Assembly (NCBI GenBank): GCA_963666835.2
Contig: CAXXGO010000001.1
Location: 32,001-96,000 of the forward strand
DNA length: 64,000 nucleotides
Reading direction: 5' to 3'
Source: Phycisphaerae bacterium
GTDB lineage: Bacteria > Planctomycetota > Phycisphaerae > UBA1845
The position numbers and the translations under genes were made by a program. Of this stretch, positions 1,652-33,157 are shown piece by piece; position 1 is the stretch's first letter, and each line of letters starts with the position of its first letter. The notes beneath the pieces were generated by a model. The model did not search any database. It worked only from the letters and a program-made list of their open reading frames with translations, and was not told where the DNA came from.

Positions 1652-4585
1652 ATGTTAGGTATCAAGTTTGGTACGCTGTATCGCCTGGGAGCGCTCTGTG
1701 GCGCGTTCGCCATGCTCGTACTCGTAGCGGGGTGTCCGGGAGTGCAGCCGGTGGTATGCACAACCGACGCGGACTGCGATGACGCGGTCTTCTGCAACGG
1801 GGCCGAGACGTGCGGTGAGGACGGGGCTTGTGTGGCCGGGGAAGCGCCCTGCACCGCCGAGTACTGCGATGAAGAGAATGACGTCTGCTATGAGTGCATC
1901 GCTGACGCCGACTGCGACGACGGCGATCTCTGCACGGATGACACGTGCGTAGACAACGTTTGCGATTACGCAGACGTAGACTGCGGCGACAACTTCTGTG
2001 ATCCGGCCGACGGCGAGTGCGTCGAGTGTCTGGCCGACACGGATTGCGATGATGGAGATGCCTGCACCGATGACGCCTGCACCGACGGTGTGTGTGAGAA
2101 CACGGATGTCGAGTGCGAAGAGGGCGAGATCTGCGTCGAGGGTGTTTGCGAGCTCGCCTGCACCGAGGATGCGGACTGCGACGACGAGGATGCCTGCACG
2201 ACCGACACCTGCACGGACGGGATCTGCGTTTACGAGGACGTTACGTGTGATGACGAGGATCTGTGCACGACCGATACCTGCGATCCGGATACCGGTTGCG
2301 TATACGCGGACGTCGAGTGCGAGGACGGCTACGAGTGTGACGCGGAGACCGGTGAGTGCGTCGAGATCGAGGAGATCGCCTGCGAAGAGGACGCCGATTG
2401 CGACGACGAAGTCGACTGCACCGACGACACCTGTGGTGAGGACGGCTTCTGCGATTTCACCGACAACTGTGCCGAGGGCACGCTGTGCGATGAGGATAGC
2501 GGTGAGTGCGTCGAGTGTCTGACTGACGACGACTGCACCGTCGAAGGCGAAGTCTGCGACGAGAACAACGAGTGCAACGATCCGACCTGCGAGACCGAGA
2601 GTGTAGATCTCACGCTGAATCGCGATGAGCTCACCACCGGCTGCGGTGACGACATCTTCAACGCCTATGTTGAGTTCAACACCGGCGCGTTCGTGGCGAC
2701 TCTGCAGTCGCAGGATTCGCTTGACGGCGGCACCGGCGACGACATTCTCAATGTCGAGTTCGAGCACTCCGCGGTCAAGACCGTAACGCCGACCGTCACG
2801 GACATCGAGACGATCAGCATTACGGATACCGGTACTGCGGTCACCACCCTGGCCGGTACGAACTTCTCCGGCGTGACCACGATCAACAGCGTTAACAGTT
2901 CGTCGAACGTCACCATCACGGCGATGCCGATGTTGGTGGATTGCGGCCTGCAGGGGACGACCGGGGACTTGCTGTTCACCTTCGATACCGCCGCCACGAC
3001 CGGCTCGGTCGATGCGATGGCCGTTACGGTCAGCGGAGCGAAGGCGGGCACCACGCTGGGTATCACCACCGGTGCGGCCAATGGTATCGAGTCGATGTCG
3101 ATTGATTCGACGGGCTCGGCGAGTGTTATTGATGCCATCACGATGACGACCGGAACCACCTGGACGTCTCTGACGGTGACCGGTGACCAGAACCTGACGA
3201 TCACCGCGGATCTGCCTGATCAGGTCACGACGATCGACGGAAGTGCGATGACGGCCGGAAACCTGAAGGTCGGAACCGGTAACGGCGTTATGGCGGTGAC
3301 CGGTGGTGCCGGCGATGACCAGTTCACCTTCAGCACCGGCGAGTTCCTGATCACGCCGACCGCCACCCGCGATACCGTCAACGGTGGCGAAGGTACTGAC
3401 ACGTTGCGTCTGGCCACGGCCGATGCGGACAATGCCACGGTAACCGTTCCGGGTACCAACGTCGCCACGAGCATCGAGGCGCTGCGGATCACGGATGCGG
3501 TAGCCGGTGCGATCAACACCACCTGGTGGGGCACGATCGGTACGTTCACCACCGAGGACGGCTTCGGCAACAACACCAGCCTGACGGTCGCCAGCGGCAC
3601 GAACGTCGTCTGCGAGGACGGTACCGACAGTACCGCCAACGCCCGGTCGTTCATCGTCTCGGGCAGCGGAACCACGGATACGATGACGCTGACCCTGGCC
3701 GACCACGACTTCGGGGCGGCGGCGTTGACCTTCACGGGTGTTGAGACGCTCAACTTGGTGTCGAACCTGAACATCTCGGGTGCGGCGGCCGACGGTGGCG
3801 GTATCAACGTGATCGGCGGGGCGCTGACCATGACGAACACCGCCGCGGTCGAGACCGTCGTTGTCACCGGTACCGAGGCTCTCACGATCACCGGCGCGGT
3901 TACGGCCGACAAGATCGATGCGTCGGACTTCACGCATAACCTGACGATGACGCTGACTGCTCCGATGGTGGCGAGTGGTAGCGGAAGCATCGTCGGTGGT
4001 AGCGGCGACGACACCCTGGTAGGTTCCGGCAATGCCGACACCATCACCGGTGGCGACGGTGGCGACGTGCTCAGTGGTGGCGAGGGTAATGACATCCTGA
4101 CCGGTGAGGGTGGCCAGGACTACTTCCACTTCCTGGATACGACGGACAACATCGTGTATGCCGGTGGTACGAACACGATCACCGACTTCACGGCCGGTAC
4201 GGATTACCTGCGGTTCGACAAGAGTAACTACTTCTCCTCGGCCACTGGCGGTGGCGTTGCGGTTACCAGCACGAACTACTATGAGGGTGCTCCGGCCAGC
4301 CTGGGTGCGACGACGTACGAGGTAGTGGTGGTTACGAGTGCGTCGTACGCGACGGCGGGAGCGGCCGAGGACGCGGTTGTCGCGGGCTCGACCTCCGGCA
4401 ATGACGCGGTCGTGATCTACTACGATTCGACGCAGGGTTATGCTCGGATGTACTTTACGACGACGCTGGGTACCGATGTGAATATTGATGGAAACACCGA
4501 CCAGATCATGGCGAACTTCACCAATATCACGACGTTGGCTGCGCTGTCGAACTTCGCGTACACCGACTTCTACGTTGCTGACTAA
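1652..4585 (+). CDS. Secreted lipoprotein: N-terminal Cys/Asp-rich repeats fused to an RsaA/S-layer-like beta-rich region with RTX-type Ca-binding nonapeptides
   Basis: GGAGG RBS; signal peptide with lipobox LVAG-C; about 280 aa of CxxDADCDDGDxCTxDxC repeats; then T/A/G-rich region with DSLDGGTGDDIL, GGSGDDTLVG, GGDGGDVLSGGEGNDILTGEGGQD and a TITDF motif. Confidence 0.8.
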   Translation: MLGIKFGTLYRLGALCGAFAMLVLVAGCPGVQPVVCTTDADCDDAVFCNGAETCGEDGACVAGEAPCTAEYCDEENDVCYECIADADCDDGDLCTDDTCVDNVCDYADVDCGDNFCDPADGECVECLADTDCDDGDACTDDACTDGVCENTDVECEEGEICVEGVCELACTEDADCDDEDACTTDTCTDGICVYEDVTCDDEDLCTTDTCDPDTGCVYADVECEDGYECDAETGECVEIEEIACEEDADCDDEVDCTDDTCGEDGFCDFTDNCAEGTLCDEDSGECVECLTDDDCTVEGEVCDENNECNDPTCETESVDLTLNRDELTTGCGDDIFNAYVEFNTGAFVATLQSQDSLDGGTGDDILNVEFEHSAVKTVTPTVTDIETISITDTGTAVTTLAGTNFSGVTTINSVNSSSNVTITAMPMLVDCGLQGTTGDLLFTFDTAATTGSVDAMAVTVSGAKAGTTLGITTGAANGIESMSIDSTGSASVIDAITMTTGTTWTSLTVTGDQNLTITADLPDQVTTIDGSAMTAGNLKVGTGNGVMAVTGGAGDDQFTFSTGEFLITPTATRDTVNGGEGTDTLRLATADADNATVTVPGTNVATSIEALRITDAVAGAINTTWWGTIGTFTTEDGFGNNTSLTVASGTNVVCEDGTDSTANARSFIVSGSGTTDTMTLTLADHDFGAAALTFTGVETLNLVSNLNISGAAADGGGINVIGGALTMTNTAAVETVVVTGTEALTITGAVTADKIDASDFTHNLTMTLTAPMVASGSGSIVGGSGDDTLVGSGNADTITGGDGGDVLSGGEGNDILTGEGGQDYFHFLDTTDNIVYAGGTNTITDFTAGTDYLRFDKSNYFSSATGGGVAVTSTNYYEGAPASLGATTYEVVVVTSASYATAGAAEDAVVAGSTSGNDAVVIYYDSTQGYARMYFTTTLGTDVNIDGNTDQIMANFTNITTLAALSNFAYTDFYVAD

Positions 4586-4644
4586 ACTCGGATAAGAACG
4601 GCTCGCTAAGTGCGGGTCAGGCTCATCTGAACGGCAGTACGAAA

Positions 4645-4689
4645 CACGGAGCTCGGCGGGAACAACCTCGCCGGGCTCCGTGCCTTTTT
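4645..4689 (+). terminator. Rho-independent terminator
   Basis: Stem CACGGAGCTCGGCGGG / CCTCGCCGGGCTCCGTG followed by a T run, 60 nt after the stop codon. Confidence 0.7.
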
Positions 4690-4774
4690 ACGGGCTCGTC
4701 GTTTTTCGGGCTCTCGTCCGCGCTTTTGGCCGCGAGTCTCTCTAGGGCCCTCATCCGCCCCCACCCACGCCCTC

Positions 4775-4862
4775 GTAGGGCAGCGTCGAGGTACGAGACC
4801 TGCCGTAACTGCTGCGCGACGCGCGCCTTCGAGGCAGGTCTCGTACCTCGACCGTGCCCTAC
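4775..4862. repeat. Inverted pair (REPIN-like) of the 29-bp REP family GTAGGGCACGGTCGAGGTACGAGACCTGC
   Basis: Copies at 4775-4803 (+) and 4834-4862 (-); the same family recurs 13 more times in the window. Confidence 0.85.
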
Positions 4863-5574
4863 TTGGCCTTGGGAATGCGAGTCTCCTTACAATCCCAATC
4901 CGTTTCCCACCGATTCCGGCGACGAGTCGATGCGGCTGTTCCAGCTCGCCAAACGCCGGTATGGGGCACCCGCGCGGATGTCTTTCGGGTTTTCGTCCGT
5001 CCCCCACCCATTCCGGCGGTGAGTCGTCGCGGCTGTTCCGACGCGGCAGACGCCGGCACGCGCGCTGGAACGGGGTACTCGCGCGGGTGGTCCCCGGCGA
5101 TACCAGCATTGGGGCGAAGCGGGTCAGGCCCGATAACCTCTCCGCCAGTATTGGTAACCTGCTCGGGGTTAAGCACTTGGGGAATGGTAGTTCGTGGCGG
5201 GAGACCGCAGCCCGCTTTTCTCCGCATTGCAGGCCTTGAAAAATCGTGCAAGTGAGCTCATCCTTAGGTGGCGCCGCAACAAGTATGTAACCGACATGTC
5301 ACAGAAGGCCGGGCGTTCCCGGCGCGGCGCGTAGGATGCAATCAGGCGGATCGCCTTGGTGTAGAAGAGAGGTGGACCGGGTCGGTTGTGCGCCGATGTC
5401 GCAGTCGATTCGCCTCCAGCGCTGATGGACGTAAGTCGGCTGCTGCGAAGCAGTTACGATCCGGTGGCCGGGTTTGCGTCCGTTGTGGTTCAGGTTGCCG
5501 GGGCGATGGTACGGCTTGCGCGGCGGGTGGTTGGACGACCGTGCGATAACCGGTGGTTTGAGTGAGGCGGTTTG

Positions 5575-6774
5575 ATGCCGAGTTTCACGTATAGAGCGGT
5601 CAATGAGGGCGGTGAGCAGGTCGCCGGGGTTCTGACGGCCGAGAACTACCAAGTAGCGCTGCGGATGTTGGATGAGCAGGCGCTCTACCCGGTAAACGTG
5701 TCCGAGGGCGTGGGGCAGATCGATACCCCGTTCTCAAGGGGCCGCAAGGTCAAGGCGCACCACCTTACGACGTTCTACACGCAGCTTGCGGATCTTCTCA
5801 AAGCTGGCGTTCCCATGCTGCGATCGCTCGACGTCCTCTCGCGGCAGGCGTCGCAGGGGACGTTGGGCCAGTTGATAAGAGAATTACGCGAGGACGTGGC
5901 CGGTGGTACTTCGCTGGGCGATGCGATGGGGAAGCACCCGTACGCGTTCTCGCCGCTGCACGCTTCGATGGTCCGGGCGGGGGAACAGGGTGGCTTTTTG
6001 GAGGACGTACTGGCCCGGATCGCGATTTTCTCGGAGAAGCAGGACGAGCTGCGCAACAAGGTCGTCGGCTCGATGATCTACCCGGTGATTTTGGTGTTGG
6101 CCGGGTCGCTCGTGATGTCGCTGGTGATGTTCGTGGTGGTCCCGAAGATCCGTCCGTATTTGCGGGAAGAGACCTTCAACCCCATGACGGTGGCGGTCTT
6201 TTGGGTGTGTGATCTGCTCAAGGACCACTACCTGGTGGTCATAGGCGCATTCGTCGGGGTCTTGCTGGCCTTGTCGACTTTTGCCAGGACGGAATACGGC
6301 AAGGCGTTGTTCGAGCGGGTTAAACTGCGGGCGCCGATCATGGGGAACATCCTCACGATGGTGGCGATTTGCCGGTTCTGCCGTATTCTTGGCACTATGT
6401 TGCACAATGGGGTGCCGATCCTGCAGGCTCTGAAGATCTCGAAGGACTCGGCCGGAAACGAGATTCTGGCCAAAGTGATCGAAGAGGCCGGCGACAGCGT
6501 GAAGAAGGGCGCTGCGCTCTCGGATCCGCTGGGAAAGAGTGGACTCTTTCCCCCAACGGTGGTGGACATGATCGCCGTGGCGGAGGAGAGCAACAATCTG
6601 GAGACCGTGCTGGTTCAGATTGCCGAAACTAACGAAGTGCGCACGGCGCGGCAGATCGATTTGGGGGTGCGAATCCTCGAGCCGGTTCTGCTGGTGATTA
6701 TGGCGTCGCTGGTGTTCTGCGTGCTCGTGGCGATTCTGTTGCCGATTCTGACGATGGGTTCGGCGGCGATGTAG
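5575..6774 (+). CDS. gspF: Type II secretion/T4P inner-membrane platform protein GspF/PilC
   Basis: MPSFTYRA start, FYTQLADLLKAGVPML, MVRAGEQGG, SMIYP, FCRILGTMLHNGVPIL, MIAVAEES, LEP motifs. Confidence 0.95.
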   Translation: MPSFTYRAVNEGGEQVAGVLTAENYQVALRMLDEQALYPVNVSEGVGQIDTPFSRGRKVKAHHLTTFYTQLADLLKAGVPMLRSLDVLSRQASQGTLGQLIRELREDVAGGTSLGDAMGKHPYAFSPLHASMVRAGEQGGFLEDVLARIAIFSEKQDELRNKVVGSMIYPVILVLAGSLVMSLVMFVVVPKIRPYLREETFNPMTVAVFWVCDLLKDHYLVVIGAFVGVLLALSTFARTEYGKALFERVKLRAPIMGNILTMVAICRFCRILGTMLHNGVPILQALKISKDSAGNEILAKVIEEAGDSVKKGAALSDPLGKSGLFPPTVVDMIAVAEESNNLETVLVQIAETNEVRTARQIDLGVRILEPVLLVIMASLVFCVLVAILLPILTMGSAAM

Positions 6775-6968
6775 GCGTTGTAGGGCGGCGCTTGCGGGCC
6801 GGTCTGCATGAGAGGTTGATTCCCCCGGAGGCGGGCGGGACTGCTTTCGGGATGACATAAGAACCCGGACGTCGGGCGAAGGTCAAGGTGCCGACCGGCG
6901 AAAGGAATGAGGCCGTATCGCGGTGGTTAAGTCTGCGAAACGGCAATGGACTACGAAGGAGAGATGTG

Positions 6969-31096: not shown

Positions 31097-31263
31097 CCGT
31101 ATCGCAGGGCACTGTAGACGTACGAGACCGGCCGTGGTTCTTGCGTAGGGCACGGTCGAGGCACGAGACCTGCCGTGAGGGTTTGTTGCTCCACGATTCG
31201 TACGAATTCCACAGTCCTTAGTTGGGTACCGAACTACGCCGAAGATAGTGACATATGTCCACC

Positions 31264-31472
31264 GCGACCGTGTGGCGATCACCGGGGGCTTTGCCCCCAG
31301 ACCCCCAAGGTTTGTCGCTTGGGAGCCAGAACAGGCCAGGGAGAGCGAGAGCCCGCCGTGCATGCAGACTCCCGCGCCTGTCCCGGCACTGGTACGAGCG
31401 CTCGGGGTGCTCCTCAGCAGAGCCCTGTCCTCTCGACCAGCACACACAAGTCTGACGTGCTGTGCCATCGAG
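31264..31472 (-). ncRNA. Putative structured RNA in the 3' non-coding end of the element
   Basis: At least five helices whose non-Watson-Crick pairs are mostly G-U on the minus strand (A-C mismatches on plus). Confidence 0.6.
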
Positions 31473-32246
31473 TCAAGCATGCTGGCCCTCCAACTCATGA
31501 TCGATCTCCAGGTACTCCTGAACCAGGAAGATGCTGCAACCTAAAGCATGGGCTGTCTCCTTTGCCGTCAGCCCCTGAAGATGGCAGTGGCGGACGCGAT
31601 CGTACTGGCCCAGGTAACGATCCACAGCCTCAAGGCTGTGGTACGTTTCCCGAGCCACTTCGTTAGCCGCTTTGCCTTCTGCGTAATGTTTGAAACAGAT
31701 GATCCGTTTGTGCGTAAGCCCTGTGCCGACATCGTGGACAGTAGCGCGACGTGGGACGATCTGACCGGTCTCGCGTTCGTACGCCGCCAACAATCGCGAG
31801 ACGTCCGACGCATTGACTGCTAACAACTCCGAGAGATCAGAGTTGGACAGAACGCCCCCTTGTTCGTACGCCTGTCGGCATAACCTCAAGCTCTTTTGTA
31901 AGAGCAACTCTCCACGTCCCTTCTTCTGCAAACGCATCTCGATATCCTCGAAGGTACTCACGTCCAAGACCACCGGAAGCAGATCGGTATCCTCAATCCG
32001 TCGACGCTGACTCGGGGGATCTGCGCTGCTGATCGCCATCCAGAGTATCTGACCATGTTGGATATGCTCCTTCGGGAGAACGTGGGCACCGATGACCTCA
32101 AGGATCATCTCTGCGCACAGGTTGCGAATCCGTGGGCCGCCTATGCGTGGAAACTCCGTTTCGATGCGGTGAGCCAACACGTTTCTCAGCGTTTTCGCCT
32201 GCAGGGGACTGTATCTTCTGCTGTTGGTGTCTCGCGGCTTACCCAT
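31473..32246 (-). CDS. DUF1670-family protein (element ORF2)
   Basis: LRLCRQAYEQGGVLSNSDLSELL, PRRATVHDVGTGLTHKRII, HSLEAVDRY and C-terminal HTH; ATG 32246 overlaps the ORF1 stop (ATGGGTAA). Confidence 0.82.
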   Translation of the reverse strand: MGKPRDTNSRRYSPLQAKTLRNVLAHRIETEFPRIGGPRIRNLCAEMILEVIGAHVLPKEHIQHGQILWMAISSADPPSQRRRIEDTDLLPVVLDVSTFEDIEMRLQKKGRGELLLQKSLRLCRQAYEQGGVLSNSDLSELLAVNASDVSRLLAAYERETGQIVPRRATVHDVGTGLTHKRIICFKHYAEGKAANEVARETYHSLEAVDRYLGQYDRVRHCHLQGLTAKETAHALGCSIFLVQEYLEIDHELEGQHA

Positions 32247-33090: not shown

Positions 33091-33157
33091 GCGTAGTCCT
33101 CCCAAGTCCCGAAGTCCGTTACCAAGGTACCCGGGTGGACATATGTCAGGAAGGTAG

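Follow-up and report, generated by a model that had tools for sequence, protein, structure and literature searches.

The 209 nt separating the stop codon of orfB from the right inverted repeat of a DUF1670 element encode a previously uncatalogued structured RNA, R1, which has no match in Rfam 15 and no description in the literature searched. The element is 1.9 kb long and lies in a 64,000-nt stretch of a Phycisphaerae contig (CAXXGO010000001.1), which is called the window below. We consider it likely that R1 is a real, independently transcribed and portable RNA and not a programmable guide. The best explanation overall, which we hold to be probable to a modest degree, is that R1 and its promoter form a portable accessory cassette, which stands outside the DUF1670 targeting machinery and might tune expression. 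Literature searches on DUF1670 (PF07900, IPR012873) found no description of it, a search for IS-linked structured RNAs in Planctomycetes found nothing relevant, and the main text of a 2026 preprint on noncoding sequence space, the part of it that was available, contains no mention of DUF1670, IS21 or "Planctomycet".

The sole ORFs of the element are orfA and orfB, two tandem DUF1670 genes on the minus strand which end at 31473 (Table 1). The true start of orfB is probably 14 codons inside the annotated ORF, as relatives have 257 aa. There are 1,438 orfB relatives at E <= 1e-5, most of them on contigs of about 2 kb. The AlphaFold2 model of orfB (pLDDT 80.6) has three HTH-type domains. It turned out that Foldseek gave no match in PDB at E <= 0.001, while the VIA-align matches (Z up to 6.3) were confined to HTH, winged-helix and sigma-region-4 domains and to residues 108-257; a catalytic fold was recognised by neither program, with the N-terminal 105 residues barely covered. 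The source genome contains six copies of the element, with 5 differences over 1,922 aligned positions. None of these falls in 31264-31472, and the source genome is therefore uninformative on covariation. Three linked differences at 32270-32267 (AG.T vs GA.A) divide the six copies 3:3 and sit exactly where the end of orfA overlaps the start of orfB.

The ends were read from aligned copies and empty sites. The right end reads GGTG-GACATATGTC-ACTATC (31263-31244), and the empty sites read AACGCCTTCGGCGTA, that is, AACGCC followed directly by TTCGGCGTA. The sequence ACGCCTTCGGCGT has 44 exact copies in the source genome. The element occupies the loop of the hairpin that terminates a MITE-like repeat of about 200 nt, and no target duplication is present; CT is common to both junctions and the empty site. 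The same order (5' arm, element, loop and 3' arm) was found for 45 related elements from other genomes and metagenomes, whose target arms are mostly GCCCC/GGGGC, with GTCCC/GGGAC, CCGCC/GGCGG, CAGCC/GGCTG and GCCCT/AGGGC also occurring.

Table 1. Features of the DUF1670 element and of R1, in window positions
Feature	Position	Strand	Content or evidence
orfA	33105-32239	minus	DUF1670 paralogue with HTH_23
orfB	32288-31473	minus	DUF1670 protein
Left end	33134..33156	minus	9-nt extension TACCTTCCT, palindrome GACATATGTC and CACC
-35 box TTGACT	31471..31476	minus	includes the orfB stop codon TGA (31475-31473)
-10 box CAGACT	31449..31454	minus	16 nt after the -35 box
R1 RNA, about 160 nt	31282..31442	minus	alignment, RNAalifold, pair counts; covariance model 140.5 bits
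5' domain P1-P3	31388..31441	minus	helices 1-4 91-99.5% paired; internal loops invariant
P1	31441-31437 with 31392-31388	minus	4 of 5 pairs compensatory
P1a	31434-31430 with 31400-31396	minus	
P2	31425-31423 with 31406-31404	minus	
P3 tetraloop hairpin	31419-31416 with 31411-31408	minus	3 of 4 pairs compensatory
P4 domain	31325..31387	minus	helix around variable P5 and pyrimidine-rich 3' bulge
P4 helix	31387-31377 with 31335-31325	minus	11 of 11 pairs compensatory; 98.0% of cells paired
Linker AAGCGAYAAACC / AAGCGACAAACC	31309..31320	minus	single-stranded, nearly invariant
P6 hairpin	31282..31300	minus	86.4% of cells paired; 4 of 5 pairs compensatory
Right end	31244..31263	minus	subterminal repeat GGTGGACATATGTC (31263-31250) and 6-nt extension ACTATC
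Right flank TTCGGCGTA	31235..31243	minus	loop and 3' arm of the target hairpin

Several repeats surround the element. The MITE-like repeat of about 200 nt at 33365-33157 (minus strand) recurs at dozens of sites in the genome with terminal inverted repeats of about 34 bp, and every copy ends in the hairpin ACGCC-NNN-GGCGT, the target of the DUF1670 element, which is found at either end of the repeat and in both orientations. A shorter repeat of 31-34 nt (GGCAGGTCTCGTGCC...) flanks the element on both sides (33400-33370 and 31176-31144) and has well over 100 copies, which locally form arrays with a period of about 113-116 nt, such as C6:1089228-1089944. Part of the MITE also makes up a 312-nt tandem array at C6:1905526-1907184. 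Besides, remnants of the element itself were observed. At C6:739723 a single 25-bp remnant, in which the left and right ends are fused at the palindrome GACATATGTC, lies in a MITE hairpin loop; it could have been left behind when the two palindromes recombined, or be a derivative that consists of the ends alone. A decayed fragment at C6:796203-796366 contains R1, then the palindrome and then the left-end 9-mer in reverse complement, which looks like the outcome of an inversion or rearrangement of the part flanked by the two palindromes. The right end stands alone at C6:1881259.

Most relatives have a conserved motif on the 3' side of orfB, and for the structure of R1, 46 homologous sequences were aligned (alignment A2). 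RNAalifold and pair counting gave 38 pairs in seven helices, with compensatory changes on both sides in most of them (30 of 38). Paired cells amount to 94.6%, vs 80.6% in shuffled alignments, none of which (0 of 500) reached the observed value, and in slid controls only 39-47% of cells are paired. The single-sequence fold of the minus strand has -111.8 kcal/mol (z -3.9; 1 of 200 shuffles equally good), and that of the plus strand has z -0.86. Across the family 93.7% of cells pair on the coding strand and 87.0% on the opposite strand; there are 163 G-U cells vs 33 A-C cells, and therefore the structured strand is the coding strand. The preliminary description, made from this one sequence, had already noted that nearly all imperfect pairs are G-U on the minus strand and would be A-C on the other.

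The fold consists of two domains supported by covariation and a nearly invariant linker. The hairpin P5 is hypervariable in sequence and the pyrimidine-rich bulge of the P4/P5 domain varies in length across the alignment. In the linker, the columns G125, C126, G127, A130, A131, A132 and C133 are invariant. The R1 covariance model has 164 positions. P6 is usually present, is missing from some homologues and has no U-tract on its 3' side that would mark the 3' end of R1. Two further forms of the sequence were seen. The loci L128, L139 and L147 (also L104 and L115) have, about 250 nt upstream of the intact R1, another R1-like copy that is degenerate (22-24 bits), and in L051 and L057 the GGAUAG motif is found after the P3 hairpin and not before it, a variant that the model barely detects and that is possibly a rearranged 5' domain.

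The preliminary description had proposed a strand-specific structured RNA here, and the RNA turned out to be real and supported by covariation once homologous ends were aligned, with limits and anatomy different from those proposed. The helix GCCGGGACAGG/CCUGUUCUGGC corresponds to P4, the GC-rich hairpin enclosed by it to P5 (9 of 10 pairs compensatory) and the hairpin CUGGGGGC/GCCCCCGG to P6, and these three survive in the family alignment, while the most conserved domain (P1, P1a, P2 and P3) and the linker had been missed. Two other proposed helices were given up. For CUCCCAAG/CUUGGGGG just 53.5% of cells are paired across the family. The 5' hairpin CUCGAU..GGCACAGCAC/GUGUGUGCU..GUCGAG overlies a conserved promoter upstream of the predicted transcript start, and it makes use of the promoter spacer, which is unconserved in 65 homologous upstream regions.

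No known RNA family was recognised: Rfam 15 gave 0 matches over the whole window at gathering score, and a search of 31150-31560 with E up to 10 returned only miRNA and snoRNA models (E >= 0.18, far below cut-offs). These searches bear on the idea that R1 is a self-cleaving or otherwise catalytic RNA which would process element transcripts. Invariant unpaired nucleotides at helix junctions and the tie to repeated mobile DNA would suit a ribozyme, but no Rfam ribozyme matched at E up to 10 and no conserved cleavage-site signature was recognised. A catalytic role, suggested by analogy, is very improbable.

For the promoter, 65 distinct upstream regions, contexts other than DUF1670 among them, were lined up by the conserved core. 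The bases of TTGAC at -42..-38 are kept in 59, 55, 58, 51 and 44 of the 65 regions, and at -20..-15 the pattern nAnAAT is found (A in 60, A in 54, A in 62 and T in 60 of 65); the 16-nt spacer between the two boxes is unconserved. The same two boxes precede R1 in contexts without DUF1670 genes. By their sequence, the boxes form a conserved sigma-70-type promoter predicted to drive R1, and the transcript would start at about 31442, the first base of P1, judging from the position of the promoter. A strict consensus promoter scan did not list this promoter, because CAGACT has too few consensus matches. Among public RNA runs, none is listed as covering 31200-31700.

This promoter also bears on the possibility that the conservation reflects DNA structure at the element end, such as single-strand hairpins formed in transposition. 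As such a reading would expect, the right inverted repeat adjoins the stretch and hairpins are the target of the element. On the other hand, G-U cells far exceed A-C cells, a conserved promoter stands in front of the stretch, and in other elements (see below) the module is located far from the ends and in both orientations. We regard selection on DNA structure as extremely improbable.

To see how regularly R1 accompanies its element, DUF1670 loci were summarized. R1 was found in most metagenome loci (66 of 80) and in 26 of 56 genome loci, the latter count including one partial 23.5-bit match, and it is always on the strand of orfB; in L068 the match is located upstream of the genes. Among the 14 metagenome loci without a match, 2 are cut by the contig end and in 7 the orfB stop is only 35-62 nt away from the right repeat. 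In four loci of one Acidobacteriota genome this distance is 33 nt. These short elements without R1 retain the same ends and the GCCCC/GGGGC hairpin targets. In two genomes with such elements, R1 was not found among the best 150 of about 6,000-6,800 candidates scored. In an orfB tree of 110 rows (quick IQ-TREE), elements without R1 form a clade of 9 rows (support 88) and a clade of 2 rows (support 99), both nested in a 98-row clade to which all 77 rows with R1 belong; R1 is missing from a distant clade of 12 rows. The branches with support >= 95 force at least 3 gains or losses of R1. R1 probably entered one DUF1670 subfamily at its base, with at least two later losses, and it seems to be dispensable for DUF1670 elements. 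The precise insertion into hairpin loops seems to be independent of R1, leaving the DUF1670 proteins or a host enzyme as candidates for mobility, and the result narrows the question of how elements with a DUF1670 pair move.

R1 is also carried by other mobile elements. The covariance model found 12 sites in the source genome, namely the six DUF1670 copies, one decayed fragment (C6:796203) and five copies of a 1.84-kb repeat. The repeat is an IS110-family element (C6:1566809-1568650, i.e. L171 at about 3810-5650, and four more copies) with a 395-aa DEDD transposase (PF01548 and PF02371) that is convergent with R1. It has its own subterminal inverted repeats, CATGAAAGGC[A/T]GTC, and the R1 homologue lies inside them, 127 nt from one end. 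At the R1-side end of this element, three of four left flanks contain the inverted complement of the element's first bases. A different IS110-family element, with five copies in genome G043, also contains R1, again convergent with the transposase gene. The R1 of this element is identical to that of the DUF1670 elements in the same genome at 128 of 137 positions, and the similarity is sharply bounded, running from the -10 box to the linker and excluding P6; the one IS110-type end that was read, together with its flanks, differs from the DUF1670 ends and flanks. What's more, a MITE of about 270 bp in genome G310 (Acidobacteriota; four copies in L222, L223, L220 and L217) has a TATAAT promoter and R1 as its sole content, flanked by terminal repeats of about 28 bp that begin with GGCTCCTCGC. 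Three of the four MITE copies stand directly downstream of a gene on the same strand. The repeated unit thus includes R1 in one MITE and in at least two elements of the IS110 family.

Beyond these, R1 was found in 10 of 150 other Planctomycetota genomes (E <= 1e-5) and 7 of 151 Acidobacteriota genomes (E <= 1e-6), and the R1 records are labelled Planctomycetota, Acidobacteriota, Verrucomicrobiota and Nitrospirota. The neighbours are various: an IS110-family gene on the same strand, with R1 28 nt downstream of it (one genome), IS21 istA/istB convergent with R1 (one genome), IS21 in another genome where R1 is antisense between istA and istB, IS3-family genes (four genomes), as well as ISL3, IS5-like, phage-type integrase, helicase and toxin-antitoxin genes. 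For IS3, ISL3, IS5-like and one IS110 context, the relation is adjacency within 1.5 kb and not inclusion in the IS, and some of these contexts may be nested mobile-element debris, like the two decayed DUF1670 fragments found. R1 accompanies IS110-family genes in three genomes and is on the strand opposite to the recombinase gene in two of them. Five R1-bearing genomes had no match to PF07900 (DUF1670); they are MAGs, 69-94% complete, and since MAGs often lose repeats, this absence is weakened. With an R1 homologue as query, blastn found nothing in the plasmid and phage collections, and Pfam scans of the ORFs beside R1 named no TnpB or IscB family.

The range of contexts bears on whether R1 could guide transposition. 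The preliminary description had likened the position of R1 to that of the seekRNA of IS1111 elements, and the likeness is sound, as the element has IS1111-like architecture and R1 occupies its 3' non-coding region; the role proposed along with it, that of a guide or an element-specific cofactor, is not supported. If R1 were a guide or scaffold similar to a seekRNA or bridge RNA, serving either the DUF1670 proteins or a trans-acting IS110-family recombinase, it would be needed to pair the donor ends with the hairpin target. Such a role would suit a location where IS1111 elements encode their RNA (available part of PMC11187229), a sigma-70-type promoter and a length of about 160 nt, comparable to the 177-nt IS621 RNA (available part of PMC11208160), as well as the two stem-loops with internal loops, the IS110-family genes beside R1 (once 28 nt away on the same strand) and an orfB without recognised catalytic fold. 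In L036, L037, L103 and L112, the tail 5' of the right repeat even repeats 5-7 nt of the left target arm, but the match is missing from other subgroups.

Against a guide, the internal loops of the 5' domain are invariant though targets differ, DUF1670 elements without R1 use the same ends and targets, and R1 is on the strand opposite to the recombinase in two of the three IS110 contexts, as well as being found with DDE-type IS and in a MITE. The two G043 elements carry near-identical R1 while the IS110-type end compared differs from DUF1670 ends, which is hard to reconcile with a programmable guide, as far as these sequences tell. The preliminary description had called for a comparison of loops with target sites. 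When RNA columns were compared by mutual information with the flank or end positions of 22 elements, only scattered single columns came out, phylogenetic-looking, and no block of RNA columns tracks the DNA positions; the power of this comparison is limited because most targets share GCCCC/GGGGC. A targeting guide for DUF1670 elements is hence not supported, given invariant loops, relatives without R1 and carriage by other elements, and we judge a guide or scaffold role improbable.

As an alternative, R1 might be a cis-acting sensor or antitermination leader, riboswitch-like or similar to the put RNA of phage HK022, which would gate read-through past P6. The RNA is predicted to begin at +1 of a strong promoter, it has invariant internal-loop and linker nucleotides flanked by covarying helices, and the variable downstream hairpin P6 could be an expression platform. 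But P6 is without a U-tract, the module shared in G043 stops at the linker and excludes P6, there is no consistent downstream gene across contexts, and no Rfam aptamer matched. A leader of this kind is unlikely, though we would keep it in mind.

Another possibility is that R1 acts in trans, as a decoy or sponge for a host factor or as an anti-defence RNA, to the benefit of any carrier element. The cassette moves among unrelated elements and phyla and one MITE has R1 alone, which is consistent with such an action. Two conserved GGA-containing loops are about 17 nt apart in R1, a separation which resembles the spacing of dual-site CsrA binding. However, the GGA of the P3 loop is not strictly conserved, and CsrA was found in 3 of 5 R1-bearing genomes and not in G097 (94% complete). 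Nor is there a 14-nt complementary target in the source genome, where complements of the linker or the 5' loop (14-mers with at most 1 mismatch) had no occurrence outside R1 loci. Like the guide, a decoy or anti-defence RNA has a low probability in our judgement.

The reading that we favour remains the accessory cassette of promoter and RNA. The cassette sits between the end of the transposase genes and the element's own end, where the sigma-70-type promoter, with its -35 box overlapping the orfB stop, would start transcription at about 31442. The invariant loops and the linker suggest binding of a factor common to many bacteria; most likely they would bind one that is not specific to a transposase, for example a host protein or RNA polymerase. 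In this way the cassette might tune transposase expression. With the outward orientation, which the DUF1670 element has, transcription would pass over the right end, and in a circle or tandem form it would run into orfA with R1 as a structured leader. With the convergent orientation (IS110, IS21 and IS3 contexts), transcription would be antisense to the transposase gene. Expression control as the actual mechanism of the cassette is a tentative proposal, to which we give well below even chances, and it does not explain why a single conserved fold serves both orientations. It is also conceivable, if rather doubtful, that R1 is an RNA device independent of the transposase and exchanged as a cassette of promoter and RNA across element families and phyla. 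In that case the RNA itself would be under selection, as suggested by the MITE with R1 only, and it might license or tune transposition by acting as a decoy for a host factor, as a sensor or as a catalytic RNA; such a device, if true, would be a new class of mobile small-RNA cargo. The distribution of R1 suggests a function of general use to mobile DNA, for example expression control, use of a host factor or counter-defence.

Among known systems, the IS110/IS1111 family is the closest in architecture. The available part of one report describes seekRNAs as 82-96 nt long, encoded in the 3' non-coding region and containing two short stretches with complementarity to the target (PMC11187229), and the available part of another describes the 177-nt bridge RNA of IS621 with a sigma-70-like promoter (PMC11208160). 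The DUF1670 element resembles IS1111 in its subterminal inverted repeats with short extensions, the lack of target duplication, the CT common to junctions and empty site, and the hairpin target. As far as these parts of the reports go, R1 is likewise a non-coding RNA, within a size range of about 80-180 nt, which a small element encodes in its long non-coding end, as for ISEc11 and IS621; it too is preceded by a sigma-70-like promoter and forms two stem-loops with internal loops, and its host element lands in palindromic repeats without target duplication. R1 is also found with IS110-family genes in three genomes. Unlike IS110 and IS1111, the DUF1670 host element has no DEDD recombinase gene (PF01548 and PF02371). 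Unlike bridge RNAs and seekRNAs, R1 has invariant loops that track neither target nor donor sequence, seems dispensable within a nested clade, often runs antisense to the transposase gene, and is found with DDE transposase genes as well as on its own in a MITE. Bridge RNAs and seekRNAs bind the recombinase and are needed for forming circles and for insertion; for R1, an indirect indication is that DUF1670 clades lacking it persist in several copies and with intact ends.

In IS10, RNA-OUT acts by complementarity to its own transposase mRNA. R1 is similar to RNA-OUT and to junction promoters in that a promoter lies in the IS end and its transcript could control transposase expression. The R1 promoter points outward, and only a circle or a tandem arrangement would let its transcript reach orfA, through the junction; for IS that form circles, junction promoters are mentioned in the available part of PMC11187229. 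Different from RNA-OUT, R1 is a conserved fold common to unrelated IS families and located at the 3' end, and for this reason an antisense match cannot be the specificity of R1.

HEARO and IS605-orfB were orphan structured RNAs near mobile DNA, later shown to be omega RNAs. R1 is like them in being strongly covarying, tied to transposons and spread over several phyla. It differs from omega RNAs in that no TnpB or IscB family was named beside it and it has no guide-like variable terminus; R1 is set apart from the flank by a variable tail and the inverted repeat, whereas an omega RNA takes its guide from the flank at the element boundary. In conclusion, if our reading is true, R1 adds a widespread and strongly structured family to the few RNAs that travel with transposons, and, unlike bridge RNAs, seekRNAs and omega RNAs, this family would not be bound to one enzyme.
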